Counted from the first letter of the stretch, positions 1,239 to 61,767 are shown. The stretch: DNA of 64,000 nt from Okamejei kenojei (GCA_035221665.1 CM069154.1:6014001-6078000); one strand, 5' to 3'. Notes: generated by a model from the sequence alone, not told the origin. Made by a program: numbers and translations.

Positions 1239-1559
1239 CGTCAGATACTTGGAGATGAACGTTAAACAGTGGATCCGTGTGATCTGTATAAATTCCACAG
1301 CTGTACCATCCTGTATCTTCAGAGTGAAGATCCTCCACAGTCACAGTAAATATTCCTCGTGCCGGGTTATCTGTGATTGACACTCTTCCACTCCGTCTGT
1401 GTTGCCACTTAGTTGCCACTAAAACTTTACATTGGATAGTCCACCCATGGCACCAGTATTTTGTGTATGAGCGGTACCATGATTCATATTGACAATCGAT
1501 TGTGATCGCTCTTCCCACAACTCCTCTTACATACTTCACTCCCCACACTGCATCTGAAA
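1239..1559 (-). CDS. Gene A: V-type Ig domain exon of a CD300/pIgR-like (MDIR-type) receptor
   Basis: Acceptor ctcccctcag, donor G|gtacgt, 321 nt, phase 1-1, open frame: VSDAVWGVKYVRGVVGRAITIDCQY...KYWCHGWTIQC...RVSITDN...DTGWYSCGI...LQVSD. Four Cys including the CD300/pIgR-type C-x6-C extra pair. Confidence 0.9.
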
Positions 1560-1719
1560 CTGAGGGGAGAAACTTTAAGATGGAGAGCATATGAACTGTT
1601 TAATGAAAATAGATACATTTTGAAGATTACACGAAAGAAAACTTAATTCGTTCCATGATGTGTCATGTTGCTTTCCGGCCGATGTCTCCAGGCAGTGCTG
1701 TTATTGTACCAGTTGTGTC

Positions 1720-1850
1720 AGTGTGCTGTCCCCGGGTCAGTACAATTAGTGTTCACTTCCCACTCCAGATCCCTGGGCAGAAACTGGGCTGGGATCGCAG
1801 TGCGGTACTGAGGGAGCGCGGCAGTGTTGCAGGAGCTGCCTTTCAACAAT
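1720..1850 (+). repeat. Ancient Deu-domain SINE-like relic in intron 1 (paralogous copies at about 21150-21270 and 52950-53070)
   Basis: Contains cccactccag...cagtgcggtactgagggagcgcggcagtgttgcaggagctgcc, resembling the DeuSINE/SacSINE1/AmnSINE core as I recall it. Confidence 0.45.
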
Positions 1851-2904
1851 CCCAGGCGGTGCCCGGCCTCTCACCCTACAGAAACACCCCACTTTGCTAT
1901 TTCATTGGCGGTGCCGCCGGCTGCGCTGCCTACATTCATCTCTCAACCGACACTGGGCCGGACCCTTGTTTGGACATTCAGCGCCGCCACTGCCTTTACA
2001 ACGCCCAGACTGAGGACAGAGTACGGACGAGTTATAATAAAAAGGGTCCCTTACTGGAGAGCGTTACTAGCGTGAAAACGCACACCGCCAGATTCAGGAA
2101 CAGTTTCATCCCAGCTGTTATCAGGCATCTGAATCATCCTACTACAAACAGATGGCAGTTGTGTAGTCCCAGCTACCTCTCTGATGACCCTCGGACCACC
2201 CTTGATCGGACTTTGCTGGCTTTACCTTACACTAAACGTTATTTCCTTTTCATGTATCTATGCACTGTAAGAGGATCGATAACAATCATATATTGTCATC
2301 CTGCTGGCGAGTTTGCTCGCGACAAAAAAACTCTACCTGGGCACACGTGACAATAACCTAAACTGAATTTGGAACCCACTGGTCATCTGGGACATGTTCT
2401 ATTCCCAATGACTCCGGCTCGCCTTGGACCTTTCAGCACCACTGGGCCGCGGATTGGAGAGAGAGTTGGGAGTTGGTGGATAGAGCGAGGACAGTGGTTC
2501 AGTTTCAGACTCCAGGGAATTGTTGGATTTACGACAGAGTTGAGTTGGACAAATGCAGGGAATATTTGAACTTACACAATGAGTCCACAATCGTGACTTC
2601 CACCTCAGTTCTAAACACATTTTGTTAGTGTATATTAATTTCATGGTGATGTTGGAACCTCTTTCTTCGGTCCAGGTGTCTTGGAGTATCTGCTCCAAAT
2701 TCATTTGCTATGTTATGCCTTTAAACTATCGTCGAACAGAGTCTCGATATTTAAATACGATTTCAGATCCATCACCACAATATACTGAGTTCCAACTCCC
2801 CCATTACATGTCTACACACACTTAACCATCTCTGCTGTGGAAAGGGTGCACGGGACCCCAACTAACATTGATCACTGGAATATCAAGATCTGGCTTTCAC
2901 TCAC

Positions 2905-2941
2905 CGGGCAGTGAGGAGATGAGAAGAATGGGAATCCACAT
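2905..2941 (-). CDS. Gene A: signal-peptide exon MWIPILLISSLP(G/V)
   Basis: ATG at 2941, 37 nt, G|gtgagt donor, phase 1 joins the V exon in frame. Confidence 0.85.
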
Positions 2942-3039
2942 TGTTTTATCCACAGTTACAAGGCCAGCATTTTTCTTCCTGTCGCTCAGCTCTGAGCTCT
3001 CAGATACAACCGCATCTCTCAAATAGCAATGAGGAAGAA

Positions 3040-3060
3040 GGGAACAGGAAGTCACATCAT
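3040..3060. promoter_or_regulatory. Candidate ETS (PU.1-type) site in the proximal promoter of gene A; copy at about 23800-23820 in gene B
   Basis: gggaacaggaagtcacatc about 105 nt upstream of the ATG, conserved in A and B and deleted in pseudogene D. Confidence 0.35.
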
Positions 3061-4896: not shown

Positions 4897-5547
4897 TATT
4901 ATTACCCATATCACACATCTGAGGTATGCTTTTACGAAATTGTATTCCCTTCGTTTTTACTGCCAGCAGCGCTAACAGGGGAATATTTTACTATATTCCC
5001 CGCTGTTTTAACAGGTAAAGTCCATAGGCGTTCGCAAGAAAGGGGAATACAAGAAAATATTCCCCTGTTACCCCTGCTGGCAGTAAAAACGAAGGGAATA
5101 CAATTTCGTAAAAGCATACCTCAGATATGTGATATGGGTAATATTTTCTTATATTCCCCTTTCTAGCGAACGCCTATGGACTTTACCTGTTTAAACAGCG
5201 GGGAATATAGTCTTATATTCCCCTGGTCTCACATCCGGGAACTTGGCAACGTGACGGCAACGTGACGCTGCGTGGGAAATTTAGAATATTCAAACAGCAG
5301 ACAGGAAGACTGCCGCGTCCATTTTGGTTAAATTTTTACGTGGAAGTCCGCCGAGCTGAGATGTTCAAATTTTCCTCTAGATGTCTGATAATGGGTAATA
5401 ATAACAATATTGACTGTCCTCTTTCGGGAGATACGACATATATTGCCCTCACTAGATCCATATTGCCCTCGTCTTCGACTCGGGCAATATGAATCTACTT
5501 CAGGCAATATATGTCGTATCCCCCTCAAGGCCAGTCAATATTCTATT
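4897..5547. mobile_element. Non-autonomous DNA element with inverted repeats and terminal hairpin (CryptonV-like), internally rearranged
   Basis: Absent from paralogs (24498, 31002, 54995). Inverted repeat tattacccatatcacacatct...agatgtctgataatgggtaata, then a palindrome of about 140 nt (5405-5547) with a ccctcgtcttcgactcggg loop. Family assignment is from recall. Confidence 0.5.
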
Positions 5548-6642
5548 AATATCTGCTGCTGGCTATCGTTCTCAGTGGGTTACTTTCAGTGGGAACAATG
5601 CAGTTTATTCGGGTTGTGTCCATCTGTGGCAATGTTGTGCATCACGTGGTATCGGTGCAACACACTGATGTGTCCGCCACTGATGTTAGCTGAGCGTTGG
5701 CGACCCTCAGTAAAGGATCTTCTGTTCGGGGCGATTTGTTGTTTACTTGCCCAACTAAAAACACTGCAGTGAGGAACCGACGATGCAGCAAAACAATTTA
5801 ATTCTGTCTTCATTCGCCTTTGACCCATGACTTCTGCAAACACTTCTCAGCAAACAGTGTTACAACGAGCTGCTCGCAAGATGCGGTTCACATGTACGAA
5901 TCTACAAATCCTTGTTGCAGCATCGCGAGCAAAGTGTCAGCAGTGCAGAACAATTCAGCGTAAAGAATGAAATGAGTGTTTGAACATATCAGATTAAAGT
6001 TCATTGCAAGCCAACACCCACCACTAAATACAACAGTGGCGTCGACCCGAAATGTCACCCATTCTTTCCCTCTGGTGAAGCTGCCTGTCCCACTGAGTTG
6101 CTCCAGTATTTTGTGTCTATCTGTGGCATCTCAGACCGTTTATCTCTCACTATCTGTGAGGCACTTTGGGATATCTTGCAATGGGGAAATAATCAACTCA
6201 AGATCACCCCTCCCATTAGAACTTTAACAAGCTCCATTTGAACGGGCCAGCCAGCATCAGTGTGACCACAGAATCTGCAAGTATCTCTGACTATTCAGCA
6301 CCCCTCTGATATCCCTGACTTGAGGGTTTGTGTGTTCTAAGCAGCCTCTGGTCTCATCTCCTCGTCTCCCCGCTTACTGTGTGGAGAATGTTTATCTTTG
6401 TCAGTGGGACATTTTACCCAAAGCAATCCTTGAATCTTTCCGAACTTCATGGCGGTTACTCCGTTTTTGCAGGTCACCATTTCTTACTTCCAAACGACAT
6501 CCTTCATAGTTCTTTCATAGGCGGGATTACAGTCACAAGTCAGACTGAGGAAAGCAACACAATGTATTTGCAGTTTTACACCCCGCGCTTTGCAAGCTGC
6601 AACTCAACCATTTTTTTTGCATAAGAATATACTTTCCACTAA

Positions 6643-6940
6643 TTTAGTTTAGTTTAGTTTGGAGATATAGCGAGAAAACAGATCCTTCGGTCCACACTGA
6701 CCAGCAATCCCCGCACATTAACACTATCCCACACACACTGGGTACAATTTACATGTATAGCAAGCCAGTAAAACCCACACTACATCTTTGTAGTGTGGAA
6801 GGAAACGGACGATCTCGAAGAAAACCCACGCGGTCACGGTAGAATGTACAAACTCCTTACAGTAGTCGGGATCGAACGCGGGACCCCGGCGCTGCAAGTG
6901 CTGTAAGGCAGCAACTCTACTGTTGCGCCACGGTGGCCAC
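6643..6940 (-). mobile_element. tRNA-derived SINE (V-SINE/HE1-like)
   Basis: Minus strand has A box gtggcgcaacagtag, B box gttcgatccc, a central ggttttc...ccacact domain and a (ctaaa)n tail. Confidence 0.7.
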
Positions 6941-8816
6941 TATTTGTAGTCCTTTAACTCATTTGTACAGTGGCAAAATGAAATAACTCTTTGCAGCATT
7001 AAAATGTTTATCAATATTACGGTACTCAAAGGACGCGAAAGTGGGGTGATATAGAACAAGTGATAAAGGGTTGTTTGCTGGTTGACGTGGACTCGGTGGG
7101 CCAAATGGTCTGTATCCAAGCTGTATCTTTCAATCACAATCAAAAAATAGATGTCGGAATATAAGACTATATTCCCCGCTGTTTTAACACGTAAAGTCCA
7201 TAGGCGTTCGCAAGAAAGGGGAATACAAGAAATTATTACCCATATCACACATCTGAGGTATGCTTTTACAAAATTGTATTCCCTTCGTTTTTACTGCCAG
7301 CAGGGTTAACAGGGGAATATTTTCTTGTATTCCCCTTTCTTGCGAACGCCTATGGACTTTACCTGTTAAAACAGCGGGGAATATAGTCTTATATTCCCCT
7401 GGTCTCACATCCGGGAACTTGGCAACGTGACGGCAACGTGACGCTGCGTGGGAAATTTAGAATATTCAAACGGCAGACAGGAAGACTGCCGCGTCCATTT
7501 TGGTTAAATTTTACGTGGAAGTCCGCCGAGCTGAGATGTTCAAATTTTCCTCTAGATGTCTGATATGGGTAATAATAACAATATTGACTGTCCTCTTTCG
7601 GGAGATACGACATATATTGCCCTCACTAGATCCATATTGCCCTCGTCTTCGACTCGGCAATATGAATCTACTTCAGGCAATATATGTCGTATCCCCCCTC
7701 AAGGCCAGTCAATATTCTATTAATATCTGCTGCTGGCTATCGTTTCTCAGTGGGTTACATTCAGGGGGAACAATGCAGTTTATTCGGGTTGTGTCCATCT
7801 GTGGCAATGTTGTGCATCACGTGGTATCGGTGCAACACACTGATTTGTCCGCCTCTAATGTTAGCTGAGCGTTGGCGACCCTCAGTAAAGGATCTTCTGT
7901 TCGGGGCGATTTGTTGTTTACTTGCCCAACTAAAAACACTGCAGTGAGGAACCGGCGATGAAGCAAAACAATTTAATTCTGTCTTCATTAGCCTTTGACC
8001 CATGACTTCTGCAAACACTTCTCAGCAAACAGTGTTACAACGAGCTGCTCGCAAGATGCGGTTCACATGTACGAATCTACAAATCCTTGTTGCAGCATCG
8101 CGAGCAAAGTGTCAGCAGTGCAGAACAATTCAGCGTAAAGAATGAAATGAGTGTTTGAACATATCAGATTAAAGTTCATTGCAAGCCAACACCCACCACT
8201 AAATACAACAGTGGCGTCGACCCGAAATGTCACCCATTCTTTCCCTCTGGTGAAGCTGCCTGTCCCACTGAGTTGCTCCAGTATTTTGTGTCTATCTGTG
8301 GCATCTCAGACCGTTTATCTCTCACTATCTGTGAGGCACTTTGGGATATCTTGCAATGGGAAATAACCAACTCAAGATCACCCCTCCCATTAGAACTTTA
8401 ACAAGCTCCATTTGAACGGGCCAGCCAGCATCAGTGTGACCACAGAATCTGCAAGTATCTCTGACTATTCAGCACCCCTCTGATATCCCTGACTTGAGGG
8501 TTTGTGTGTTCTAAGCAGCCTCTGGTCTCATCTCCTCGTCTCCCCGCTTACTGTGTGGAGAATGTTTATCTTTGTCAGTGGGACATTTTACCCAAAGCAA
8601 TCCTTGAATCTTTCCGAACTTCATGGCGGTTACTCCGTTTTTGCAGGTCACCATTTCTTACTTCCAAACGACATCCTTCATAGTTCTTTCATAGGCGGGG
8701 TTACAGTCACAAGTCAGACTGAGGAAAGCAACACAATGTATTTGCAGTTTTACACCCCGCGCTTTGCAAGCTGCAACTCAACCATTTTTTTTGCATAAGA
8801 ATATACTTTCCACTAA

Positions 8817-9122
8817 TTTAGTTTAGTTTAGTTTGGAGATATAGCGAGAAAACAGATCCTTCGGTCCACCGAGTCCACACTGACCAGCAATCCCCGCACA
8901 TTAACACTATCCCACACACACTGGGTACAATTTACATGTATAGCAAGCCAGTAAAACCCACACTACATCTTTGTAGTGTGGAAGGAAACGGACGATCTCG
9001 AAGAAAACCCACGCGGTCACGGTAGAATGTACAAACTCCTTACAGTAGTCGGGATCGAACGCGGGACCCCGGCGCTGCAAGTGCTGTAAGGCAGCAACTC
9101 TACCGTTGCGCCACGGTGGCCA
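8817..9122 (-). mobile_element. tRNA-derived SINE (duplicate of 6643-6940)
   Basis: Same A/B boxes and tail. Confidence 0.7.
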
Positions 9123-9339
9123 CTATTTGTAGTCCTTTAACTCATTTGTACAGTGGCAAAATGAATAACTCTTTGCAGCATTAAAATGTTTATCAATATT
9201 ACGGTACTCAAAGGACGCGAAAGTGGGGTGATATAGAACAAGTGATAAAGGGTTGCTTGCTGGTTGACGTGGACTCGGTGGGCCAAATGGTCTGTATCCA
9301 AGCTGTATCTTTCAATCACTTAATCAAAAAATAGATGTA

Positions 9340-12785: not shown

Positions 12786-13584
12786 ATAATATAGTTTAAC
12801 TGAATATAAAACTCTGGAACCGCAGAAAGCACGCAAAGGTTAATACAATAGTTCGAAGCTGACGAAAGAAACCTTGGAAGAAGTGACAAAAATTAAGATG
12901 GTGCAAGCTAGAAGTGTTCATTGTAATTCGGGGGACGAGTGGCGAAGTTCTGATTCACCGTGTCTCTGCAAAAGACAATGTGAAGTCATCAGTCTCACTG
13001 ACAGTGGGAACTACGCTTTATTTGTCCCGACCAATCCCAACACAGTGCTGTCTGGAAGATGGACCCCAACGACTCCACACCGGGCACAGAAATCCACCCT
13101 GCACACGTACAACCTGACAAAACCTCGTGATATTATCTACATGGACATTTGGATTAACTTCAGGATACGAAAACGTGCACGGTTTTTGTTTATATCAATG
13201 GACAGGATATTTGAAAGCATTAATGGAAACCATTTGGATAAATTCGGCGAAGAGATGGGATTGCTTTAGGCAGAGGGTGGCGAATCTATGAATTTCATTG
13301 CCACAGGAGGCTGTGGAGGCCAAGTCAATTCAAACAGGAGATGCTGCCTGTCCCGCTGAGTTACTCCAGTATTTTTGTATCTATCCAAATCAATTGATAT
13401 TTTTCAGGCGAACATTTTCATATTCTTGATAAATAAGGATGTCTTGGGTTTTGGGGTGAAGGCAGGATAATGGAATCGAGAGGGAAGGATAGATCAGTCG
13501 TGATTGGGGGCGGATTATATATGATGGGCTGAATGGCCTAATTCTGCTCCTATAATTTATGAACATAATGACGATCAAACCTAC

Positions 13585-13675
13585 CTTAGAGTCTCTTGTG
13601 AACACTGCGGTTGAGATACTCCAGATCACAAGCAGGAGAAAGAACAGCCAGCGCCCCACTCTCCATGAGATGTAA
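13585..13675 (-). CDS. Gene B: transmembrane exon YISWRVGRWLFFLLLVIWSISTAVFTRDSK (Arg-containing, activating type)
   Basis: Acceptor ctcttgccctttgcccag, donor AAG|gtaggt, 91 nt (phase 2-0), hydrophobic segment; 87/91 nt identical to 39726-39816. Confidence 0.75.
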
Positions 13676-14666
13676 CTGGGCAAAGGGCAAGAGATACAGA
13701 ATCACTGGGAGGAAACGAGACTGTTTATCTTTGAAACATTTACCTGTTATTTGCTTCATAGCTTTGGCGAAGTGGAGCGGGGCTAAGCAGCGGCGTCAAT
13801 GGAGATCAGCTTGGAGAAAGAACGAGTGTTGGACTGGGGGGTGGGGGGGACAACTCATGATCACCAATTACTGACCTGATTGCTGGAGCATGGTTACAAG
13901 ACTGGGAATGAGAGATTACACGGTTAAATGGATTCGGAGAAGACAGATAAATAAGTCATGAGATGGAGCAGTGAATACAGTGAATGCAGAGTAGATAGAC
14001 AGAAAATGCTGGGGAAACACAGCGGAAAAGGCAGCAATTCCGGAGAGAAGGAATGGGTGACGTTTTGGGTCGAGACCCTCTTCAGACTGGGAGTCACGGG
14101 AGAGTGAAACTGTAGAAGGATAAAAAGAACAGTGTAATATCCTGGAAGAAAGAAAATGCTGTTGCAAGGAATATTATAATAAAATCCATATGGATAGACA
14201 GGAATAATCAAAAAAAGAGCAATTCTAATGGTGGAAGGGAGATGGAATAAAAATGGAAACAGAGAGGCCAATTAATAAAATACATTAAAATGATAATGCT
14301 TAATCTCACACCCTCGATATTTCCTGGTTTAACGCGGTAGGTGTGTGGTTGGAGGAATCGTGTTCGAAAAATCGGTTAAAGGTTCGCTCATATCGGCGTG
14401 ACTTTTATTAACGTTCATATTTCCTAACGCAAGTATTACACAAGATCGCGATAACAGACACATCTATTTCAATTGTAATAATGATTATATTATGATGAAA
14501 TATTCAGGGATAATTTTTTTAATGGTTTCAAAGTTCAATGTGTAAGAGAGCGTCAGTTAACTCAGTTCGCTGTTTTCGGTCTGATTCAAGATTATTTTCT
14601 CACATTATGCGCCAGCGAATTTTTGGTGCATGACGCCATCAATGGCAAGGTGTTGCCACAAGTGAT

Positions 14667-16696: not shown

Positions 16697-17017
16697 CAGT
16701 GCCGATGATTTTCACTAGAAAACTGCAGGGCACACCACTGCTGGAGATGGACACGGTGACCATTTCACTGGATTTTGATCCACGTTGGTTTGAGGCTGTG
16801 CAATAATATTGATGGTGCTGATGTTTGAAGGATTGACAATGTAGATCCAGGGCATTGTTGTCTGAGATCTTTGAATTCACAGATGTGGTCTTTCCATACC
16901 AGCTGTAGCTAATTGGAAGGGATCCCCGCATCGACTCGCAGGACACTGTCAATGACCCACCGAGACAGGATAAATTGGCTGGTGACAGAAATCTAAGCAC
17001 AGGAGCAGATACGGGTT
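16697..17017 (-). CDS. Gene B: intact C2-type Ig domain exon
   Basis: Acceptor ctttcccacag, donor G|gtaagt, 321 nt, phase 1-1: EPVSAPVLRFLSPANLSCLGGSLTVSCESMRGSLPISYSWY...YYCTASNQRGSKSSEMVTVSISSSGVPCSFLVKIIGT. Confidence 0.85.
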
Positions 17018-17200: not shown

Positions 17201-19793
17201 AACTTGGGCGAATTATGTTCAGCTTCAGCCACTCAGCTGTACCAAACATCCCACTACGGTCAATGACACTTTACTATCCCCCTCTTTAAATAATTCCCAT
17301 TACCTCTGTCCTCCACTCCCTCATCCCACACATCATGGGAAAATGTATATGCTTCGCGTAATTGATACATTTCCATAAGTACCTCGCTCAATCATTTCCA
17401 CAGCAAGGAATGAAGTCTGTAACAATCTGTCCCTGCGTTAATCACACCCTGTCCAGGCAGCGTTGCCCTAAAACCTTTCTGCACGCTGTCCACCTCAACG
17501 GCATTTTTCTTGGAGCTGAGGGACTAAAGCTGAATATAATTCCCAAAATGTGGACTCAACATCTGAAGCATATTATCTCAAATTATGTTCTGAATGTTCT
17601 CACTGATGATGACCAGCGTGCCAAAAACTCTATTTAATGCCTTTGAATTTAAAGGCGAAAATTAATTACGATCCCTTTAAGATAGACCAAACAACGCTGG
17701 AGCAACTCAGCGGAGCAGGCGGCATCTCTCGACAGAAGGAATGGGGGACGTTTCGGGTCATGACCCTTCTTCAGTCTGAGAGTCATGAGAAAGGGAAACA
17801 GAAGAGAAATGGAAGGGTAAGGTGTGAAAACAAATGAACAAAAGTAAAAATGTAAAAATAAAATGTAGAATGGATCATTGTCAGCTGAATGGAAGGTGAC
17901 AACGAGGCATACAATCAGTAAAATATAATCAGGAAGACAGTGAAACTAAATGGCACACTAGGACGGGGCGGGATGCAGACAGGAGTAAAGCAAGGGTTAC
18001 TTGAAGATAGAGAAGTCAATATTCTAACCGCTGAGTGTCAGCTGCCCAAGCCAAATATGAGGTGCTATTCCTCCAATTTGCGTTTGGCCTCCCTCTGACT
18101 GTGGAGGAGCTCCAGGACAGAAAGGTCAGTTTGCGAATGGGAGGGGGAGTTCGTGCTTAGCAATCGGGAAGTAGCGTAGGCCGATGCAGACTGAGCGGAG
18201 TTGATCAGCGAAACGATCGCCGAGCCCGAACCTCCGAGGAGTTCACAACTCAGATCCAGTTGATTGCCAGACAAGATCGTTGACCACCCATACTCGTTCT
18301 TCTCACACCATGTGTAATGGATGGGAAGGGATCCACGGACAGACTCACACGACACTGTGACGGAGCCTCCGAGACGTGAGGCATTTGCTGGTGACAGATA
18401 TCTGAGCACAGGAGCAGACACAGGTTCTGTGGGAAAGGAGTAAACATTCAATCACCTGTATCTTACCGGCTCATCTTCATCTCTGTGACTGTGCGACACC
18501 CAGACACTGAAGCAGGTTACAGTTATAGAGTACCGAAAGAGGCCCATCACAACAGCTCATTCATGCCGACAATCATGTCTTTCTAGACCATTTTCATATG
18601 TCGACGTTTCTGCCTTAACGCTCGCAATGATCCCAATCTACGCAACTGTCCAAAATGTCTTTTAAATGCTGTTATTCTGACTGTCTCAACAACTTCCTCT
18701 GGCAGCAAGTTCCAGACACATATCACCCAATGTGTGGAAAATGTTGTCCCTCAGAACAGAAGTTGGTCAACTTGGGCGAATTGTGTTTAGCTTCAGCCAC
18801 TCACCTGTACCAAACATGCCACTACGGTCAATGACACCTTACTATTCCCCCCTCTTTAAATAGTTCCAGTACCTCTGTCCCCCACTTTCTCATCCCACAC
18901 ATCGTGGAAAATGAACATGCTTCTCGTGATTGATACATTTCTATAAGTTCCTCGCTGAATCTGTTCCACACCAAGGAATGAATTCTGAGTGTCCAATCGC
19001 TCCCTGCGTTAATCAAATCCTGTCCAGGCAGCGTCGTCTTAAAATTTTCTGCACGCTGTCCACGTCAAAGGCACTTTTCTTGGATCTGAGGGACTAAAGC
19101 TGAACACAACCCCCAGAATGTGGACTCAACACCTGCACGTCTGAAGCATATTATCTCAAATTATGTTCTGAATCTTCTCACTTATGAAGACCAGCGTGCC
19201 AAAAACCCTGTTCATTGGCTTGGAATTCAAAGGCGAAAACTAATTACGATCCCTTTAAGATAGACACAAAATGCTGGAGTATCTCAGCGGAGCAGGCAGT
19301 ATCTCTCGAGAGAAGGAATGGATGAGGTCTCGGGTCGAGACCCTTCTTCAGCCTGAGAGACATGTTCAGGGTAGCAGAAGAGAAATGTAAGGGTAAGATG
19401 TGAAAACAAGTTATCAAAGTGAACAATGTTAAAGGAATATATAGAATGGATAATTGTCAGATGAACGGAAGATGACAACGAGGCATACAATCAGTAAAAT
19501 ATAATCAAGAGGACAGTGAAACTAAATGGAGAACTAGGGCGGGATGGAGACAGAAGTGAAGCAAGGGTTAATTGAAATTTGAGAAGTAAATATATAAGCC
19601 GCTGGGTTGGAAGCTGCCGAAGCGAAATATGAGGTGCTGTTCCTCCAATTTGCGTTTGTCCTCACTCTGACAGTGGAGGAGTTCCAGGACAGAAAGGTCA
19701 GTTTGGGAATGGGAGGGGGAGTTAGTGTTTAGCAATCGGGAAGTAGCGTACGCCGAGGCAGGGTGAGCGGAGTTGATCAGCGAAACGATCGCA
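17201..19793. repeat. Tandem duplication of an intron module flanking C2 exons (about 17201-18223 vs 18769-19793), each copy with a Penelope fragment
   Basis: Collinear similarity over about 1 kb; both copies end in Penelope sequence. Confidence 0.85.
18228..18426 (-). pseudogene. Gene B: truncated first C2-type exon (no second Cys), fused to Penelope sequence
   Basis: Intact acceptor, then EPVSAPVLRYLSPANASRLGGSVTVSCESVRGSLPIHYTW...LDLSCELLG, running directly into ctcggcgatcgtttcgctg (Penelope). Confidence 0.75.
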
Positions 19794-20638
19794 GAGTCTG
19801 CGCTTGGTCTCCCATCTACTATATCCGCTTGTTCGCACCTGGAACAGCGGATAGAATAGATGAGGTTAGATGAGATGCAATTGACCATCTGCTTCACCCG
19901 AAAAGACTGTTGGAGTCCTTGGACGGAGTGGACGGGCGAGGTTTCTGGACAGGTGTTGCATCTGCTGCAGTCGTAGGGGAAGGTACCTGGGGACGGGATG
20001 GTTTGGGTGGGAAAGGACGAGTGGCGCAGGGAGCTGCGTAGGGAACGGTCTCTTCGGAAAGCAGAAAGCGGTGGAGATGGAACTATGTGGTTAGTTGTGG
20101 GATCCCGATGGAGCTGGCGAAAATGTCGGAGGATTGTATGCTGTGTGCGACGGCTGAGGGGGCGAAATATGAGTTTATTCTGCTTACCACCAGGGAAATG
20201 TCCGGGTGGAGAGGTTGGCTGACTGCTGGGTGGTGGGTGGACAGTGGCTGCTGTGGTTGGGGGTTCATTGACGGGGCCGAGGGAGAGAGAGAGAGAGCAC
20301 GCAGGGTAGGGAGGAAGTGACTGATCCCAGAGGTGGGGGCGGGAAGCGGGCTGGCCTGCCCCGGGAGGACTGAACGCTGTCTGTTGAGCTTCGGGGACTC
20401 ATTCCCTGTTTAATATTCTCCGGGTATTCAGACCGCGAGCAACACTTGTTTCTCACTGATCTGTACCTGTCGGTTTATTAGTTTGAGTGGAAATGCAAAC
20501 ACTCTGGCAGGGTGACATTTTTTTACAGTTCGGAGGCAGGGAAATGTGCTGAGCATCCCCCTTGAAGTGACACTTCCCGGAGAAAACATGGAGCAGGCAT
20601 TTCTGTGGAGACATCAAGTCAATCGCTGCGAAACGTAC

Positions 20639-20953
20639 CGTCAGATACTTGGAGCTGAACGTTAATCAATCCATCCCAGAAATACGAACTAATTCCACAG
20701 CTGTACCATCCTGCATCTTCAGAGTGAAGATCTTCCACAGTCACAGTAAATATTCCTCGTGGCGGGTTATCTGTGATTGACACTCTTCCACTCCGTCCGT
20801 GTAGCCCATTTGTTTCCACTAAAACTGTGCACCGGCGAGACCACCCACGGCACCAGTATTTTGTGTGTGAGCGGTACTCTGCTGCATAGTGACAATCGAT
20901 TGTGATCGCTCTTCCCACAACTCCTCTTACATCCCTCTCTGCCCACACTGCAC
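20639..20953 (-). CDS. Gene B: V-type Ig domain exon (CD300/pIgR-like)
   Basis: Acceptor atttcag, donor G|gtacgt, 315 nt, open frame: GAVWAERDVRGVVGRAITIDCHYAAEYRSHTKYWCRGWSRRC...DAGWYSCGISSYFWDGLINVQLQVSD. Confidence 0.88.
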
Positions 20954-23665: not shown

Positions 23666-23702
23666 CGGGCAGCGAGGAGATGAGAAGAATGGGAATCCAC
23701 AT
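23666..23702 (-). CDS. Gene B: signal-peptide exon MWIPILLISSLP(G)
   Basis: ATG at 23702, 37 nt, G|gtaagt donor. Confidence 0.85.
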
Positions 23703-37600: not shown

Positions 37601-39238
37601 GTGTTTAGTCTTAACAGTTCAGCATGGCCTGCTGTTCTCTCTTTTTGTGAGAGTATGAACTTCCTGCTAGGCGTATGCTGAACTGGGACGGTAGTTTGTA
37701 TACAAATTCAATTTTGTAATTCTGAATACTTCCGAGTATGTAAAAGTTCAGAGGTAAAAGTGCAGCACACATGATGAAACAAGTGCAACCGTCCCCCAAC
37801 TTTTAATGAATCGGACATGCAATTTTTTTTAAAGACAACCAACCCACCTACCTCCATGGTTACCGGTGTTGTGTGGGTTGTCTCCGCAGTTGTTTCTTCT
37901 GGTATTGTGTTGCTGCGTTGTGGGGTTTGGCGCGTTTGCCAAGAAGGCCGGGCTGGGCCATGGTCTGAAAGACCGCTGTGCAGGTGGGCCGGCCTTCGAG
38001 CTTTCACCACCAGATGTCTTCCATAGCACCGATGTCTGGTGGGTGTGTAGGGGTGCTGCCGCTGTTGATAGTGGGTTTTAGAGGTGCTTGGCACCTTGAT
38101 CAGGCCTATAGCCTTGGCTTCCTCATGCAGGTCTTTCACCTGCTTCGGGAGGTCCCCCAACAGCAATTTTGGCGCCTGTGTGCTACTTGTCTTGCATAAT
38201 TCCGCACTTCTTGATGATGCTCTTCCTGTAACTGTAAATCTCCACTGAGTATTACACAGTCTGCTAGAGCATCACGTAACTCTTCAGGCAAATCAACCCC
38301 ATCAGTTGTCCTGGTACTGCTGTGATTTAGCAGCCAGCAGTTTCCTCTGGAGCTTCACCTCCTGGCTCCTTATAGATGGGCTCCTGTTGCCCCAGATGGG
38401 GTCATAGACTGCTGGTACTTTAAGAGAAATGGAGTTCTCTGGAGCAATGTGCTTCCCAGCCATAAAGTTAATGGCTTGCTCCTGTAGCTGGTTTGTAGCC
38501 ATGTATTTTTTACTGGCTTGCAGCTTTGTATAGGCAGTCCTTCTTGAGTTGATACAGCATGTGTCCCACAATCTTCTGCTGCTCTCTCTTCTGGCACCCC
38601 TCACAGTTGACTGTTCAGCCGTTGCCCCTTCTTCAGGGTCCAGCCCAGCTCTGACCCCTAATGCTCCCCTGCGAAGAGGGTGAGACATTTGGCAGTCCTT
38701 GAAAGGATCCTGCCGTGGGTCTGCGAAGAGACCCACTGTGACTCTGCCCCTGCATAAACAGGTCACGCTGGAGCACTGCTCCCCACCCGCTCCCGCGGGA
38801 AAGACGCCCGCCGTCGCTATCTGTGAACAGGGTGTCTTCAGGTCCGGACCCAGCCGAGTCACGGACCTGTCCGACTTCCGGGTGGTTTTGCCGCCGACCG
38901 CGGCGCACCTGCGGTCTGTAGCGGCGAGAAGCCGGGAGCTGCTGGCAGCACCTGCAGCTCTGGAGAGACGGCACGCTGCTGGCTGCTTCCACAGCAGCAG
39001 TATCAGCTGCTGCTCTCCCCTGCGCGACTCCATGGTGCTTCCTCCGTTCTGCAAAAGAAACACACCGAGTCGCCACGCTCACCAGAAAAGGTAAGACTTA
39101 CCTTCAGTAATTTTTCAAAATTCGCGCTGGAGGAGCGGTGCTCCTCCCGACTGTCGCTTCCGCAATGCGTTCGACGATATGGCGCGCATGCGTGCTGGCG
39201 GGTCTTCACGTAGTCACTCACGTGACTCCGAAGTAAAA
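34632..39238 (-). mobile_element. DIRS1-like tyrosine-recombinase retrotransposon, full-length structure with degenerate ORFs
   Basis: Left terminus 34631-34708 is complementary to 34851-34928; right terminus 39204-39238 is complementary to 34927-34962 (ICR); imperfect ITRs. Remnants of gag, RT (MAYLDDIL, YLGFTIDSV), RNase H (INYLEMLGA), MT (TPDIDLF) and YR (SYRESTRRQY, HSNRAASTS). The empty site is seen near 13090. Confidence 0.9.
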
Positions 39239-39725: not shown

Positions 39726-39816
39726 CTTAGAGCCTCTTGTGAACACCGCAGTTGAGATACTCCAGATCACAAGCAGGAGAAAGAGCAGCCAGCGCCCCAC
39801 TCTCCATGAGATGTAA
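39726..39816 (-). pseudogene. Pseudogene D: transmembrane exon YISWRVGRWLLFLLLVIWSISTAVFTRGSK (open)
   Basis: Same splice sites and length as the gene B TM exon. Confidence 0.75.
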
Positions 39817-41313: not shown

Positions 41314-41574
41314 CAGTGCCGTTGATTTTCATTAGAAAACTGCAGGGCACGTCATTGCTGGAGATTGACACGTTGACCATTTCACTAGATTTTGATCCAC
41401 GTTGGTTTGAGGCTGTGTCTGAGATGTTTGAATCCACAGATGGGGTATTTTCATACCAGCTGTAGTTAATCGGAAGGGATCCCCGGACCGACTCACAGGA
41501 CACTGTCACTTAGCCCCCGACACAGGGTTCATTGGCTGTTGACTGAAATCCAAGCACAGGAACAGACACGGGTT
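41314..41574 (-). pseudogene. Pseudogene D: C2-type Ig exon
   Basis: In-frame TAA after VGG and a 60-nt deletion removing LDLHC...YYC (261 vs 321 nt). Confidence 0.85.
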
Positions 41575-42160: not shown

Positions 42161-42420
42161 GAATTGCCAGCAGGAAACGGGAGCATCGTTTATGCAACAC
42201 CGCCAGATATTCAAAACAACAACGAAGCTGCCCATTTGTTGAATCAAAATCAAACTGTATACAGGAGTGCAATTGCGAAGGAAATCGACAGGGACACACT
42301 CCAGTACAAATAAGGACAATGTCTGCTACTCAGATGTTACATTTCAAAGTGACAGCCAAATTGCCCGTCAGAAAACTCTTTCTCCTCACAATCCATTAAC
42401 CAGATTTATACTTCTTCGTG
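42161..42420 (+). pseudogene. Antisense relic of an ITIM-type cytoplasmic exon (copy 2)
   Basis: ctttag|GAA start; ELPAGNGSIVYAT...EAAHLLNQNQTVY/(frameshift)GVQLRRKSTGTHSSTNKDNVCYSDV; shares TNKDNV with gene E. Confidence 0.65.
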
Positions 42421-42964: not shown

Positions 42965-43274
42965 CTTCAGATACCTCGAGATGGACATTAAATGTTGGTT
43001 CGCCAGGTGTAGTAATTCCACGACTGTACCATCCTGTATCTCCAGAGTGAAGACCCTCCACAGTCCCAGTATTCCTCGTGCCGGGTTATCTATGATTGAC
43101 ACTCTTCCGCTCTGTCCATGTTTCCATTTGTTTGCACATTGTGCACATTGGCGACTTGTCCCATTGCACCAGTATTTGTGCGTGAGCGGCACACTGCTGC
43201 ATAGTGACAATCGATTGAGACCGCTCTTCCCACATCCACTTGCAGTGCACTCTCTGCCCACAGTGCGCCCGAAA
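42965..43274 (-). pseudogene. Pseudogene D: frameshifted V-domain exon
   Basis: VSGALWAESALQVDVGRAVSIDCHY.../KYWCNGTSRQC...GRVSIIDNPARGI; 310 nt with several indels; splice sites retained. Confidence 0.85.
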
Positions 43275-43299
43275 CTGAAGGAAACTCCTTTCATATATT

Positions 43300-50200: not shown

Positions 50201-52601
50201 CATCCCCAACTTCTCTGCTACTGTTAGGTGGCCTGTACACAACACCCACCAGCGTTTTCTGCCCTTAGTGTTTTGTATCTCTACCCATACCGATTCCACA
50301 TCCTCCAAGCTAATGTCCTTCCTTTCCATTGCTTTAATCTCCTCTCTAACCAGCAACGCTACCCCACCTCCTTTTCCTTTCTCTCTATCCCTCCTGAATA
50401 TTGAATATCCCTGGATGTTCAGCTCCCAGCCTACGTCACCCTGGAGCCATATCTCCGTGATCCCAACTATATCATAATCATTAATATCTATCTGGCACGT
50501 TCAACTCGTCCACCTTATTACGAATACTCCTTGCATTGAGACACAAAGCCTTCAGGCTTGTCTTTACAACGCATTTACCCCTTATACAATTTTGCTGAAA
50601 AGTGGCCCTTTTTGATTTTTGCCCTGGTTTTGTCTGCCTGCCACTTTTACCTTTCACCTTGCTACCTAATGCTTCTACCGTCATTTTACACCCTCCTGCC
50701 TCTCTGCTCTTGTACCCATCCCCCTGCCACATTAGTTTAAATCCTCCCCGACAGCACTAGCAAACACTCCCCCAAGAACATTGTTCCATTCCATTCCAGG
50801 TGCAAACCGTCCTGTTTGTACCGGTCCCACCTCCCCCAGAACTGGTCCCAGTGCCCTAAAAATTTGAATCCCTCCCCCTTGCACCACTTTTCAAGCCACG
50901 TATTCATTTGCATTATCCTCCTATTTCTACTCTGACTGGCCCGTGGTACTGGTAGTAATCCGGAGATTACTACCTTTGAGGTCCTACTTTTAAGTTTATC
51001 TCCTAGCTCCCTAAATTCACCTTGTAGGACCTCATCCCTTTTTTTACCTATATCGTTGGTGCCACATGCACCACGACAACTGGCTGTTCACCCTCCCCCT
51101 CCAGAATGTTCTGCAGCCGTTCAGTGACATCCCTGACCTTTGCACCAGGGAGGCAACATACCATCCTGGAGTCTCGTTTGCGGCCGCAGAAACGCCTATC
51201 TATTCCCCTGACAATTGAATCCCCTATTACTATTGCCCTTCCCCTCTTTTTTCCCCCCTCATGTGCTGCAGAGCCACCCATGGTGCCATGAACCTGGCTG
51301 CTGCTGCATTCCCCTGATGAGCCATCTCCCTCAACAGTATCCAAAATGGTATACCTGTTTAGGAGGGAGATGACCGCAGGGGACTCCTGCACTACCTGCC
51401 TACTGCTTTGCTGGCTATTGGCCACCCGTTCCCTTCTTGTCCTCTTCCTCTTACCTGCGGTGTGACCAACTCACTGTACGTGCTATCCACGACTTTCTCC
51501 GCATCGTGGATGCTCCAGTATGAATCCAGCCGCAGTTCCAATCGTTCAATGCGGTCTGCCAGGAGCTGCAGCTGGACACACTTCCTGCAAACGTAGTCAC
51601 CAGGGACACCGACCATCTCCCAGATCTCCCACATGTTGCACGCTGAACAAACCACGGGGCCAATCTCTACTGCAATTGGATTTATGAAAGGGAAATCATG
51701 CCTGACTAATCCTCAGGAATATTTTGAGGATGTGACAAGTAAAATGGATGAAGGGGTGCCAGTGAATGCAGTGTATCTAGACTTTCAGAAAGCCTTTGAT
51801 AACGTCCCGCCCGGGTGAGAGGTGACTAAAATTAAAGCACATGGTATTGGATGTAGGGTGTTGACATGGATAGAACATTGGTTGGCAGACCAGAAGCAAA
51901 GGGTAGGAGTGAACGGGTCCTTTTCAGAATGGCAAGCAGTGGCGAGTGGAGTGCCACAAGGCTCGGTGTTGCGGCCGCAACTGTTTACCATATATACTAA
52001 TGATTTGGAAAAGGGAATTAGGAGCAACACTAGCAATTTTGCGGATGACACAAAGATGGATGGCAGTGTGAACTGTGAAGTGGATGTTAGGAGGTTGCAG
52101 GGTGATTGGACAGTTTGAGTGCGTGGGCAGATGCTTGCCAGATGCAGTATAATATAGATAAATGTGAGGCTATCCACTTTGGCGGCAAAAACAAGGGGGC
52201 AGATTATTATTACAAAGGGGTTAGGTTAGGTAAGGGGGAGGTGCAGCGAGACCTGGGCGTCCTTCTACAACGGTCACAAAGTTAGCTTACAGGTACAGCA
52301 GGCAGTGAAAAAAGCTAATGGAATGTTGGCCTTCATAATAAGAGGTTTTCAGTATAGGAGTAAGGAGGTTCTTCTGAAGTTGTATAGGTCTCACGTGAGA
52401 CCACATCGGGAGTATTGTGTATAGTTTTGGTCTCCTAATTTGAGGAACGACATCCTTGTGATTGACGCAGTGTAGCGTAGGTTCACGATATTGATCCCTG
52501 GGATGGCGAGACTATCATCTGAGAAAAGATTGAAAAGACTAGGCTTGTATTCACCGGAGCTTAGAAGGATGAGGGGGGGGGGGGGGGGGTATCTTATAGA
52601 A
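47205..52601 (+). mobile_element. Plus-strand CR1 fragment split into 47205-47645 and 51672-52601 by a nested CR1
   Basis: ...SPSQH / GFMKGKSCLTN... is continuous across the insertion. Confidence 0.8.
47642..51668 (-). mobile_element. Near full-length CR1 LINE (ORF1 zinc finger plus SGNH esterase; ORF2 APE plus RT), frameshifted
   Basis: CSACNMWE...CRKC; AIVIGDSIVRG; LCLNARSIRNK; VIMGDFN; LGKSDH; NYRPVSLTS; YLDFQKAFDKV; KFADDTKLG; 3' tail. Confidence 0.92.
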
Positions 52602-52603
52602 GC

Positions 52604-52770
52604 CCGTCCGGGTTGCCCATTTGTTTCCACTAAAACTCTACACGGGCGGCTCCTCCCAAGGCACCAGTATTTTGTGTGTGAGCGGTACTCTGCTGCATAG
52701 TGACAATCGACTGTGATCGCGCTTCCCACAGCTCCTCTTACATACGTCCCTCCCCACAGTGCATCTGGAA
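52604..52770 (-). pseudogene. Pseudogene D: 5' half of a V-domain exon truncated at a CR1 junction
   Basis: VPDALWGGTYVRGAVGSAITVDCHYAAEYRSHTKYWCLGRSRPCRVLVETNGQPGR, then CR1 sequence. Confidence 0.88.
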
Positions 52771-53878: not shown

Positions 53879-53915
53879 CGGGCAGCGAGGAGATGAGAAG
53901 AATGGAAATCCACAT
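53879..53915 (-). pseudogene. Pseudogene D: leader exon MWISILLISSLP with mutated donor (GT>GA)
   Basis: G|gagagt instead of G|gtgagt. Confidence 0.8.
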
Positions 53916-56900: not shown

Positions 56901-58451
56901 ATTGGACAAGTTGAATAACTCGTTGCAGCAATATTTTCTTTAAATCAATGTTGCAGAACTCAAAGGACGCGAAGGGTGGGATAACATAGAACTAGCGTGA
57001 AATGGTTGATTGCTGTTTGATGTGGACTCGATGGTCCAAATGTTCTATACCCTTGGTGTATCTTTCACTCACTCAGTCAAAACAAAACAAAAAATGAATT
57101 GCATATCGCACTTAAAATCCTCAGATATTAGATGGTCTCAGCATGTCATGCAGCATCTTTGGAGAGAAAAATAATGCTAATATTCAGAACAAGGTCGTTG
57201 CATCATATTGTTCTGACGGGATACCATGGTCTGAAAGATTAATTGATTGCCTTTATTAAACGTCCTTAACGATTGTCAGCAGGAGGAATATACAGCAGTC
57301 TGAATGCAGTCTGTTCTTCATCAATAAAGTTACAGTCTAAACAATACAAATGACACAAACGCTTCATTGACAACAACAGTTTATTAAGAAGCATTCTAAT
57401 ACATTATTATTCATTGATCGTTATAAAAAAAGAATTACAGTCATTTGAATGCATTGAACAGGGTTTAACAGAGTATAAGGCTCTAGAGCAGCCGGCAACC
57501 GTGCAATGGTTTAAAAATAGCTCCAAGGTGACGAAATATAATTTCAGAGATGACAAAATTAAAATCAGAGCGGGAAACGATAAGTATAGGGAAGGAGTTT
57601 TGGAAACCGTTATGGTCTTGATATTTGGAAATGTACGTCCTCTGGTTCTTGATCCCCTTTAACTCTGAATAAAATGATATGTGCATCTACTCTGTCAAGG
57701 GTTAGAGTTTTCAGACTTTTAAAGCGCAGGGCAAACAAAGTGGAAACCAAAGGTTCTGATGAATTTGGACTTTAAGATAGCATTTTATAAGATGGCACAA
57801 GGTTATTATAGGACATTTGATTTATAACATGGTTATGTTAGGTGCTGGCATGAAATATAATTTGCTTGTGGATCGGAAACAGAATGTATGAATTTTCGTG
57901 TCATTTTCAGATTGGGAGTCTATGACCGATCTGTGAGAAGTGGATCGCAACAGAGTTCATTGCTGCTGTCCCATGTGTTCCCATCTGCACTAATGATTTG
58001 GATGAATGAACCGATTGTAGCTTGATCAGGTGTATTATCCGGCAGAATAGGTTGGGAGGAGGTTATTGGGAGACTTCAAGGGGATGGAGACAGGCAAACA
58101 GAATGGGTGAATAAGCATGTGGAAGGTGTGAAGTTATCCACTTTCGTAGCAAATATACAAGGGTCGTGTGTTTATTAGATGGTGAAGGATTAAAGTATTG
58201 TTGTGTGGAAAAATTTGGGTATTTTTGTACATGAATCCTTGAATCTTACCAGAAAGACAATAAGAAATTAGATGGACAAATGGTCACCATTGCATGAAAA
58301 TGTGTCTAGTCCTGTAAATATGTCTTTATATCTTTAAATACGGTCTTTACACTCACATCGTATGTATAGTATTGGTGAGCTAGCAGCGACCAGAGCAAAA
58401 CCCGATTAAGGATATCTGAAACAGAAGCAAAAATATTGGAAGCAATTTTCT

Positions 58452-58920
58452 GTTTAGTTTAGTTTAGTTTGGTTCAAAGATCCAGCGCAGAAACAGGCCT
58501 TTCGGCCCACAGAGTCCTCGCCGACCAGTGATCCCCGTACACCAGCACTATTTTACACACGAAGGATAATTTACAATTTTTATCGAAGCTCATTAACCTA
58601 CAAACCTATACGTTTAATTTAGTTTTGTTTGGAGATACGGCGTGGAAACAGGCCCTTCGGCCCACCGAGTCCGCGCCGACCAGTGATCCCCGTACACCAG
58701 CACTATTCTACACACGAAGGACAACGTACAATATTTACCGAAGCTCATTTACCTACAAACTTGTATTTCTTGGGGGGGGGGGGGGGTACCGGAGATCCCA
58801 GGGAAAACCAACGGAGGTCACGGGGAGAACGTATAAACTGCGTACAGACAGCACTCGTTGTCAAGATTTAACGTGGGTCTCTGGCGCTGTCAAGGAAGCA
58901 ACTCTACCGCTGCGCCACGA
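58452..58920 (-). mobile_element. Two tandem V-SINE/HE1-like SINE copies (one partial)
   Basis: (ctaaa)n tails and a repeated ggcccaccgagtcc..cgccgaccagtgatccccgtacacc segment. Confidence 0.65.
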
Positions 58921-60815
58921 TGTAGCAAGGGGGATGACTTTAGGCACCCTGAGGTACGTGTGAGGTATCACGTTTGCAGCACACAATAATGCCTCATAGA
59001 TTTTCCATTTTACTGTAACACTCTGCATCAGTTCCTAATATTATTAACCAGCGTAAGCAACCCAACAGATGTTCAACAATTTCAACATTGGTTTAATTTC
59101 AGCAGTCACTGTGGCAACTCAACCGTCTCCTTCAGCTTTCAGTTCCCCTTTATCTACTTCCTTTATGAAAATCCACGATTCCATCAGCTGTTTATGCCAC
59201 CGCTAGCTGTTGAAGCAAGTGTCTCATCATGCCTGACCATCCCTGGTAATATAAGCCACATTGTCTCTCCTTCAATTCATCTAAGTAGATCTAGGACAGA
59301 TTATATTTGGGTAAGGTCTCTCAACTGCCAGGACTTCTATAGTCATGAAGGGTGTTCCGGTCAGTTGCTGCAAGTTGTGCTGTCTCTGGGGAGTTTGTAC
59401 GTTCTCCCTGTGACTGCGTGGGGTTTCTCCGGGTGCTCCGGTTACCTCCCACACACCAAGGACATAGAGTTTGATGGCTTCTGAAACAAAATGTAAATTG
59501 TCCCGAGTTTCTAGGAAAATGCTAGTGTACGGGTTGATCGCTGGTAGGCATGGACTCGCTGGGCCGAAGGGTCTGTTTCCCCACTGCATCTTTACATAGA
59601 TAGAAACAAATAACTGCACGAGTAGGCCATTCGGCCCTTCGAGCCAGCACCGCCATTCAACATGATCATGGCTGACCTTCCAAAATCAGTACCCCGTCCC
59701 TGCTTTCTCGCAATATCAATTGATACCGTTAGCCCTAAGAGCTACATTGAACTCTCTCTTGAATATCTCTATTGAATCTCTAAGTGAACTAAAGTCTACA
59801 GGGCGGAGCAAGAGAATATAAGCGACGAATCATCTTGTCGGTTGTGTACGTTCTCTTGTGTGTTACTTCTTAGAAATGGTAACAATGTCGAACATCTAAT
59901 CAAACTTGCTTTATTGGTGAAAAATAACAACCAGCAGCGCAGTGCCTAAAATCATACGACACAGTGCGTATAGTTCTGAGAAAATAAGACCGTAAGAATT
60001 AGAAGCGGGAGTAGATAGTTTCGCCTTTGTACCTATTCAGCCACTCAATGGAATCATGGCTGATCTTTTATCCCAGCCTCACTATCCTGCACTAACCACT
60101 ATCCTTCACTAACCCCACTATCCTGCACTAACCTATAGTTTCAGTTTTAAAGATATGGAAACAGGCATGGAATCAGGCCATTCGGACCAACGAGTCCAGG
60201 TTAACTATTGAGCAAAGGTTCGCATTTGTTCTGTGTAATTCCAATTTCTCACCTACTCCCTGCATATTAGTGACATTTTTGTACAGAGGCCAATTAACCA
60301 ACAAACCCACACGGCTTTTGGGATGTGGACGAAAACTGGGATACTCAGTAATTAGCTTACTGTCATTTGTGCAGAACTCTGATCTGACAGGTTTCATACG
60401 TAAATTATAGAATTTCTTACACTATTGTGAAAGACTTTCATCTGAGAATGAGAGATCAATACAGTAATCTTAATATAAAATGCTGTCACAGGGAGAACAT
60501 GCAAACGCCACACAGACAGATTCGACAAAAGTGGTGAATGCTGCCCATTCCGTCACTGGTTCTCACCTCCCCACCCTTGAATGGATTTACAGGGATCGCT
60601 GCCTCAAAATGACAGCCAGCATTATCAGAGGCCCACACCACCATGGCCACGAACCCATTTCACCCCTACCAACGGAAAGCCTGAAAACTATAATCACTAG
60701 CTTCAGAGCAGCTTTCTCCCGACAGCCATCAGGTTAGTAAACACAACAACTTCCAATTAAACTCTGACCGACATAGACTAGGATGGGATTAGTTTTGTCT
60801 CTTTGCACTATTATT

Positions 60816-60946
60816 NNNNNNNNNNNNNNNNNNNNNNNNNNNNNNNNNNNNNNNNNNNNNNNNNNNNNNNNNNNNNNNNNNNNNNNNNNNNNNNNNNNNN
60901 NNNNNNNNNNNNNNNNNNNNNNNNNNNNNNNNNNNNNNNNNNNNNN
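60816..60946. other. Assembly gap next to AT-rich low-complexity sequence
   Basis: Run of N. Confidence 1.
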
Positions 60947-61449
60947 TTCAATAATATATATGATATCTGATATATGATATAATATTATAATATATATAAT
61001 GATGATATAGGATATAATATTATAATATAATATATTAAATATCACACACATACACACACATACTGAACTTGTTATCGTTTATATTATTTACATAGCCCTA
61101 TGTTTATATATTCTGTTATGCTGCTGCAGGTAAGAATGTCATTGTTCTGTATGGGACATTTGACAATAAAACACTCTTGATTTTAACTTCAGCTTTTTAG
61201 CAAGACCAATGAAAGAAATTAGGTTGGATTTTGTGTGTCTGTGTGAGGATGGATATCGCCACTAGACTACTATTGTTTGGCTAGATAATGCCAATGAAGG
61301 GGTAATTGGAAAAGGGGGTGCAAATTGAAAGAATAAATTTATGGAAGCTTTACAAATTTAGCATGTGCATAGATTATGCCAGAGGAGCCTGATAAAACAG
61401 GGGAGCGAAGACAAGGCCGCAAAGAACACAGTTCCAATAAATAGTTTTC

Positions 61450-61767
61450 CTAAGAAGCAACCCTGGCATAAATTGGCTGTGCAGAATCTTGCAGTTTGCC
61501 AGGGGACCTGGCATTGCCCCTTGGGGGACCGCTTGGGGATTTAACACTTGCATAGGTGACATTGTCCTCACTGGTAACATAATGCTTTCCTTGGGAGATG
61601 ACGTTGTCTTTGTTGGTAACGGACGGTCCCATTCTCGATCTCCTTTGAAACTGCACCGCTGCATACATGATCCCGCTGTCATTGTTGGCCAACTGGGCAG
61701 CTGTCTCGTCGTCTCGAGAATACTGCAGATTCGCATAAGCAGCACTTTCTTCCGGTGTTGGTATTTC
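61450..61767 (-). CDS. Gene E: terminal cytoplasmic exon of an inhibitory receptor (rest of gene right of the window)
   Basis: Acceptor tttgtttatgttag, phase 0, 105 codons plus stop: EIPTPEESAAYANL...GIMYAAV...NVTYASV...PIYARVAS*. Two consensus ITIMs (IMYAAV, VTYASV) and two ITIM-like motifs. Confidence 0.8.
   Translation of the reverse strand, partial: EIPTPEESAAYANLQYSRDDETAAQLANNDSGIMYAAVQFQRRSRMGPSVTNKDNVISQGKHYVTSEDNVTYASVKSPSGPPRGNARSPGKLQDSAQPIYARVAS

Follow-up and report, generated by a model that had tools for sequence, protein, structure and literature searches.

Mammalian CD300, pIgR and TREM receptors, whose activating and inhibitory members are clustered, carry a V domain related to that of the skates' modular domain immune-type receptors, or MDIRs, which differ in adding C2 domains in varying number. 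In the available text of one report, MDIRs are described as multigene activating and inhibitory receptors similar to CD300, TREM and pIgR (PMC3031540). Here, a 64,000-nucleotide (nt) stretch of the skate Okamejei kenojei (GCA_035221665.1 CM069154.1:6014001-6078000; the window, with positions counted from its first letter) was analyzed by six-frame translation and splice-site mapping, and leader (L), V, C2, transmembrane (TM) and tail exons were placed on the minus strand between 1239 and 61767. The window is read as part of a skate tandem cluster of CD300/pIgR-like MDIR genes that acts as a paired-receptor locus, a reading given a probability of about 0.8.

Three clearnose skate proteins served as named references: MDIR2 (ABC86796.1), MDIR3 (ABC86797.1) and MDIR5 (ABC86800.1). 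MDIR5, ordered L-V1-C2a-V2-C2b-stalk-TM-tail, ends in an Arg-bearing TM (Arg-TM) and a 15-amino-acid (aa) tail free of Tyr. Copies in the window have the same domain order, an identical leader (12/12), a homologous Tyr-free 15-aa tail, and C2a, C2b and Arg-TM exons 88%, 81% and 27/30 or 29/30 identical to it; they differ in being broken (gene B lacks half of C2a, V2 and a recognizable stalk, X is a remnant and C/D a pseudogene) and in reading WRVGRW where MDIR5 reads WKVGRW. MDIR3 and the little-skate models P0039/P0019 share the V-C2 modules and include the nearest relatives of gene B C2b (86%) and gene A V1 (78%), but have an uncharged TM, whose exon was not found in the window, and a tail with immunoreceptor tyrosine-based inhibitory motifs (ITIMs). 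MDIR2 and its orthologs XP_055510905.1 and P0086 match the gene E terminal exon at 84%, 80% and 75% with three Tyr motifs conserved; the additional gene E motif AAYANL is absent from 3/3, and MDIR2 has DTYARV in place of VTYASV. Outside the family, Xenopus XFL and mammalian LILRA, OSCAR and FcaR, with TMs of the TM1 (NxxR) type and described in the available text of PMC2413239, resemble MDIR5-type receptors in their N-terminal TM Arg, short tail, birth-and-death evolution, domain shuffling and secreted forms. Their ectodomains are of another family, MDIRs retain the N of NxxR in part only, and binding of N-terminal NxxR TMs to FcR-gamma has been shown for XFL (PMC2413239).

Family identity and cluster layout

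The V, C2, TM and terminal exons were homologous to MDIR2, MDIR3 and MDIR5, so the CD300/pIgR-like, MDIR-type family named in the original prediction was right. The two intact V exons matched Pfam V-set (E 1.6e-13 and 3.3e-13) and the intact C2 exon matched Ig_2 (E 1.7e-7). Identity to the matching domains of MDIR2, MDIR3 and MDIR5 was 59-73% for V, 80-88% for C2a and 79-81% for C2b. All 120 listed of 121 matches to gene B C2b were chondrichthyan V/C2 receptors, including clearnose skate MDIR3 (79%) and MDIR5 (81%); MDIR1 and MDIR4 were not among the matches listed in the homolog searches. The best solved-structure (PDB) relatives of the gene B V domain were pIgR and CD300. On these similarities the exon family is the known MDIR family, to which the window adds a new member only.

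The 120 listed proteins were mapped back onto the window and each exon was assigned to the MDIR5 template. Sequence identities of 78-86% would by themselves point to a skate as the source. By this assignment B, X and C/D were shown to be duplicates of an MDIR5-type gene, damaged by deletions and retroelement insertions; their C2b exons are 86-88% identical to one another, and an intact V1-C2a-V2-C2b-stalk-TM frame is present in 0/3. The ancestral unit thus has four immunoglobulin (Ig) domains in place of the leader-V-C2 unit first proposed, and the exons at 52.6-53.9 kb and 39.7-43.3 kb belong to one broken gene. Segmental duplications of 80-90% identity enclose the receptor exons. The predicted regular spacing of 20 kb was not borne out: successive leaders lie 20.8 and 30.2 kb apart, and the two TM exons 26.1 kb apart. 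Five units within 64 kb fit the description of MDIRs as a multigene family with modular domain numbers.

The same cluster is visible in public data: each skate species has a single contig that carries many RefSeq models named 'pIgR-like'. RefSeq MDIR models P0001, P0022, P0021 and P0047 are fusions of neighboring genes, one with a TRIM gene, and annotation of the cluster is unreliable. No description of the locus organization was found in a literature search for MDIR, most subscription journals being outside its coverage, and unpublished status is not claimed.

Signalling ends and their pairing with ectodomains

Two WRVGRW exons were confirmed, in gene B (13585-13675, phase 2 to 0, 27/30 identical to MDIR5) and in C/D (39726-39816, open, 29/30 identical). 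No signalling tail had been visible in the first reading; each is followed by a 15-aa tail exon without Tyr (12918-12965, phase 0, in gene B, alignment score 42 against a shuffle maximum of 29; 34460-34507 in C/D). At the other end of the window, the predicted terminal exon with four Tyr motifs was found in gene E (61450-61767, phase 0), open for 105 aa with AAYANL, IMYAAV, VTYASV and PIYARV. Two of the four match the strict ITIM consensus and two are ITIM-like. Four such motifs occurred in 0/20000 shuffles of the exon and three in 42/20000; among 206 open segments of at least 80 aa in the window, the gene E exon alone had four. It is identical to MDIR2 at 88/105 positions, and its homolog search returned MDIR2 and its skate orthologs only (3/3), all ordered leader-V-C2-stalk-uncharged TM-Tyr tail. 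By this similarity gene E was shown to be the 3' end of an MDIR2-type ITIM receptor, an MDIR2 ortholog. Its upstream exons lie beyond the right edge, with no MDIR2 upstream exon in 61768-64000 and no uncharged MDIR2- or MDIR3-type TM exon anywhere in the window. An ectodomain unrelated to the family was not indicated: MDIR2, a cDNA-named protein, has a V-C2 ectodomain.

Pairing was examined across sharks and rays. The ends of 159 proteins comprised 64 with an uncharged TM and Tyr motif, 44 with an Arg-TM and short tail, 46 with no terminal TM and 5 others. Tyr was present in 11 of the 44 Arg-TM tails, in 9 as a terminal YKVK. From 297 C2 domains of named proteins, 108 followed by another V and 72 without a TM were dropped, leaving 66 uncharged-TM, 48 Arg-TM and 3 frame-shifted rows, to which 2 window rows were added. 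In the resulting tree, calculated on a short alignment (107 columns), Arg-TM and uncharged labels interleaved: starred branches alone required 12 or more label changes, and several genera contained starred Arg-TM/uncharged sister pairs. When restricted to 106 rows (48 Arg-TM and the 58 of 66 uncharged with a strict ITIM), the tree had 30 label changes, and a single Arg-TM clade was rejected by the approximately unbiased test (p 5.7e-36). MDIR5 and MDIR3 themselves share 82.5% of 229 ectodomain positions, and their TM and tail behind the stalk are not alignable; two more pairs share 71-79%. Across sharks and rays, the predicted ectodomains were thereby shown not to be sorted by signalling type, as expected of paired receptors.

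The proposal of a paired locus with decaying activating copies held in part. Decay of the Arg-TM copies was shown; gene A, at the left edge, cannot be called activating because its V (V1 exon 1239-1559, intact, phase 1-1) is closest among skate V domains to V1 of the ITIM-type little-skate model P0039/P0019 (78%). Its leader (2905-2941) is intact and its remaining exons lie beyond the left edge. Likewise, joining of the Arg-TM to V and C2 domains stood for MDIR5, where a nearly identical Arg-TM is joined to them in frame, and no copy in the window was shown to splice C2 to TM in frame.

Gene B and the reading frame of the Arg-TM exon

Gene B has an intact leader (23666-23702), an open V1 (20639-20953) whose usual acceptor is lost and which has an in-frame AG 6 nt downstream, the 5' part only of a broken C2a (18230-18426, 88% to MDIR5 over 65 aa), and an intact C2b (16697-17017, phase 1-1); V2 is missing. 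Contig 8 of sequencing run X2 (381 nt, 0 mismatches) joins V1 (20639-20792) to C2b (17017-16791) by a canonical CT..AC skip of 3621 nt in which C2a is omitted, and unique intron bins had no cover. Because such a joint together with empty intron bins is what spliced RNA gives, the contig was taken as spliced RNA, and gene B is still spliced from V1 to C2b. Runs X1 and X4 yielded paralogous contigs only, with one V-C2 joint in X4. The broken C2a is flanked by a 1-kb duplicate (85%) at 17201-18224 and 18769-19796, which may mark the recombination that removed V2.

Since the C2b exon finishes in phase 1 but the TM exon opens in phase 2, an in-frame join requires a stalk exon of phase 1-to-2 between them; read in phase 1, the gene B TM exon meets a stop after 15 codons. 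Support for the position of the TM acceptor comes from 8/159 models that read into the exon in one of the other two frames, 3 using phase 1 and 5 using phase 0. A stalk exon had been predicted, and none of canonical form turned up in the three copies that bear C2b. Neither a profile nor local alignments detected a stalk homolog in the introns of B, X or C/D. The profile, built from 43 stalk starts, gave best scores of 1.6 (B), 3.2 (X) and 3.8 (C/D) against a self minimum of 13.2. Local alignments of 57 stalks were judged against shuffles; a similar procedure did recover the 15-aa tail. The sole strong alignment was with the model-derived stalk of P0081, matching B and X. B had 4 further alignments with z of at least 3, X had 3 and C/D had 2, all of them short or of low complexity. 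In the X intron, where a 151-nt N gap could conceal an exon, a six-residue match to the family stalk start (EYSCQT, 26650-26680, minus strand) without a usable acceptor is either a trace of a lost stalk or chance. Just upstream of the gene B TM exon are two strong donor sites, the nearer of which is kept in C/D. A candidate exon of 26 nt, phase 0-to-2 (13876-13901, minus strand), and 66 nt rich in Ser and Pro but interrupted by stops (13745-13810, minus strand) may be relics of former stalk exons.

Direct joining of C2b to the TM exon of gene B gives a predicted 240-aa protein without a TM, with its stop 41 nt before the last junction. The same shifted reading ends 3/275 proteins, the predicted models XP_055510904.1 and XP_055511094.1 (little skate) and XP_032898097.1 (thorny skate). 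Lacking a frame-setting stalk, gene B would most directly yield a secreted V-C2 protein of 240 aa, which would be a decoy or else the reading of a non-functional transcript. The TM exons of gene B and C/D differ at 4 of 91 nt (binomial p 0.012 against 12%) and are better conserved than the introns beside them. Half of these differences (2 of 4) leave the TM-frame protein unchanged, a pattern suggestive of selection for the membrane form in the past.

Decayed copies and insertions

The minus-strand C/D pseudogene starts with a leader whose donor is dead (GA; 53879-53915), followed by the 5' half only of V1 (52601-52770), cut by approximately 9 kb of repeats including an endonuclease of the long interspersed nuclear element type. 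V2 (42965-43278) is frameshifted, C2a is absent, and C2b (41314-41574) has one stop and a 60-nt deletion. C and D as two genes were rejected, D having only the leader and V1, and C only V2, C2b, TM and tail. Remnant X is a lone C2b (28303-28617, minus strand) with 2 in-frame stops, and it lacks leader, V and TM exons.

Two decayed terminal exons of ITIM type lie inverted, on the plus strand. Copy 1 (29421-29660) has stops and matches the tail of the ITIM-type Rhinoraja model P0021 with E 3e-22; copy 2 (42161-42395), in the V2-C2b intron of C/D, is frameshifted and matches it with E 1e-23 and 68-70% identity. This tail subtype differs from that of gene E. The copies share 79% DNA identity and the same site upstream of C2b, together with their 3' flank. 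From this shared placement, an Arg-TM gene would have received an inverted copy of the 3' end of an inhibitory gene before the separation of X from C/D; gene B has lost the intron concerned. A nested gene on the opposite strand was rejected, since the inverted exons have no plus-strand V, stalk or TM partner.

Between the C/D TM and tail is an insertion of approximately 4.6 kb with terminal repeats (34633-39236). It has an imperfect palindrome at its termini and, between its two ends, an exact inverted match of 37 nt; none of 7/7 open segments tried had a Pfam match, and by resemblance it may be a DIRS-like element. An orphan 3' flank of an Arg-TM-type unit (57153-57558, minus strand), whose homolog follows the tail exon of C/D, is probably a duplication or deletion boundary. 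The last intron of gene E contains a retrotransposon with a reverse-transcriptase fragment (62700-64000, plus strand; Pfam RVT_1, E 4.5e-4). Just upstream of the gene A leader is a 2.2-kb tandem duplication (4980-7154 and 7156-9338, 96% identity), at whose start stands an inverted copy of 246 nt; it is either a recent event or an assembly duplicate.

Alternative readings

The present state of gene B can be explained in three ways. That it is a transcribed pseudogene on its way out, leaving no functional MDIR5-type gene in the window, has a chance somewhat short of even: it carries four lesions (lost V1 acceptor, truncated C2a, deleted V2, no stalk found) and both sister copies, X and C/D, are dead; against this, its leader, V1, C2b, TM and tail exons have kept open frames and good splice sites, and there is a spliced contig. 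The same intact leader, V1 and C2b, and a splice that bypasses the broken C2a, would also serve a functional secreted receptor, in which loss or skipping of the stalk gives a short Cys-bearing end and which would be a recurring skate route to soluble MDIRs. Nonsense-mediated decay is usually escaped when a stop lies less than 50-55 nt from the last junction, a limit within which the 240-aa reading ends, and the three models that end in exactly this shifted reading include two sister rows from two species (support 99). Those models are nevertheless predictions that may only mirror broken genes, the gene B contigs, followed as far as C2b, show no C2b-to-TM joint, and the conservation of the TM exon, with half of its changes silent in the TM frame, suggests past selection on the membrane form; a secreted receptor is possible and on the improbable side. 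Conservation of the TM frame would be explained if gene B made a membrane receptor through a non-canonical or two-part stalk exon. Its intron holds 9 weak phase 1-to-2 candidates and the strong-site candidate at 13876-13901, and Rhinoraja model P0081 uses a homologous intron stretch as its stalk. No candidate resembles the family stalk, however, the best falling far below the weakest true stalk; the P0081-type acceptor is CG instead of AG in gene B, and a strong phase 1-to-0 partner exon for the 26-nt candidate was not found, so that this account is unlikely.

The paired-receptor reading itself must be weighed against two others and against several points that tell against it. The Arg of MDIR TMs is near the N-terminus, as in partners of FcR-gamma; partners of DAP12 have a central Lys. 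The window Arg-TM copies share Arg in this position and the absence of a signalling tail with FcR-gamma partners, and Arg was invariant in 55/55 pattern matches among TM hits, which were selected by similarity. By analogy, the N-terminal Arg points to an adaptor of the FcR-gamma type rather than DAP12. Weighing the other way, the residue three before Arg is R in both window copies, so strict NxxR is not present, and in 59 Arg-TMs this position was K in 24, D in 12, S in 8, N in 6, T in 4 and another residue in 5. MDIR5 reportedly appeared in the original MDIR description as a receptor with none of the typical signalling motifs. The comparison proteins are for the most part predicted models, and some are fused, so that tree labels may be wrong; run X2, for which no kind is recorded, comes from one study and its contigs were followed as far as C2b; and the gene E ectodomain and gene A TM fall outside the window. 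The available text of PMC4016189 states that no FcR-gamma chain was found in sharks, and a literature search found no later report of one. If the Arg were only a snorkelling or topology residue, MDIR5-type proteins would be non-signalling adhesion or scavenger receptors and the locus would not be a paired activating/inhibitory one. The missing N and the reported lack of the adaptor favor this, and the invariant Arg, the short tails and the interleaving of these ectodomains with those of ITIM receptors speak against it, making it a decidedly doubtful account. True pIgR orthologs that transport polymeric Ig are very improbable. pIgR tops the PDB matches and many RefSeq names read 'pIgR-like', but pIgR scores add up several domains, and the V-C2 architecture, ITIM or Arg-TM ends and multigene cluster fit MDIR. 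By definition, pIgR is a single gene with an all-V ectodomain that binds polymeric Ig. No pIgR was found in sharks according to the available text of PMC4016189.

Proposed mechanism and significance

Under the preferred reading of a paired MDIR locus, ITIM receptors would recruit SHP-type phosphatases, as ITIMs do, and MDIR5-type receptors, with an N-terminal TM Arg and a motif-free tail, would couple to an FcR-gamma-type adaptor bearing an immunoreceptor tyrosine-based activation motif (ITAM). Unequal crossover and gene conversion would move TM and tail cassettes from one ectodomain to another similar one; all cassettes would begin at one shared position behind the stalk. Through such exchange activating copies would be born and lost quickly; those in the window appear mostly dead.

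A further proposal, tentative and more apt to fail than to hold, is that in skates the stalk exon is the frame switch of a dual-frame Arg-TM exon: with the stalk an activating membrane receptor would be made, without it a secreted decoy, and TM and tail cassettes would be swapped behind the stalk partly by inversions, of which the inverted ITIM exon would be a fossil. Such a frame shift, leading from a membrane to a secreted form, is a concrete, cheaply testable idea and a likely source of mis-annotated gene models. The MDIR family is already known, as are its clusters in the form of RefSeq models of other skates, and the basic finding is ordinary; the parts worth testing are the frame switch that depends on the stalk, the inverted ITIM exon as a fossil and the reading of MDIR5 as an FcR-gamma-type receptor.

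The comparative C2 tree extends paired-receptor turnover throughout sharks and rays. If the stalk frame switch is true, one cluster would supply inhibitory, activating and soluble partners, and an FcR-gamma-type adaptor would already be present in cartilaginous fish. MDIR5-type TMs resemble those of FcR-gamma partners in a lineage for which the available text of PMC4016189 reports the adaptor missing, and this bears on when activating ITAM-adaptor signalling arose.

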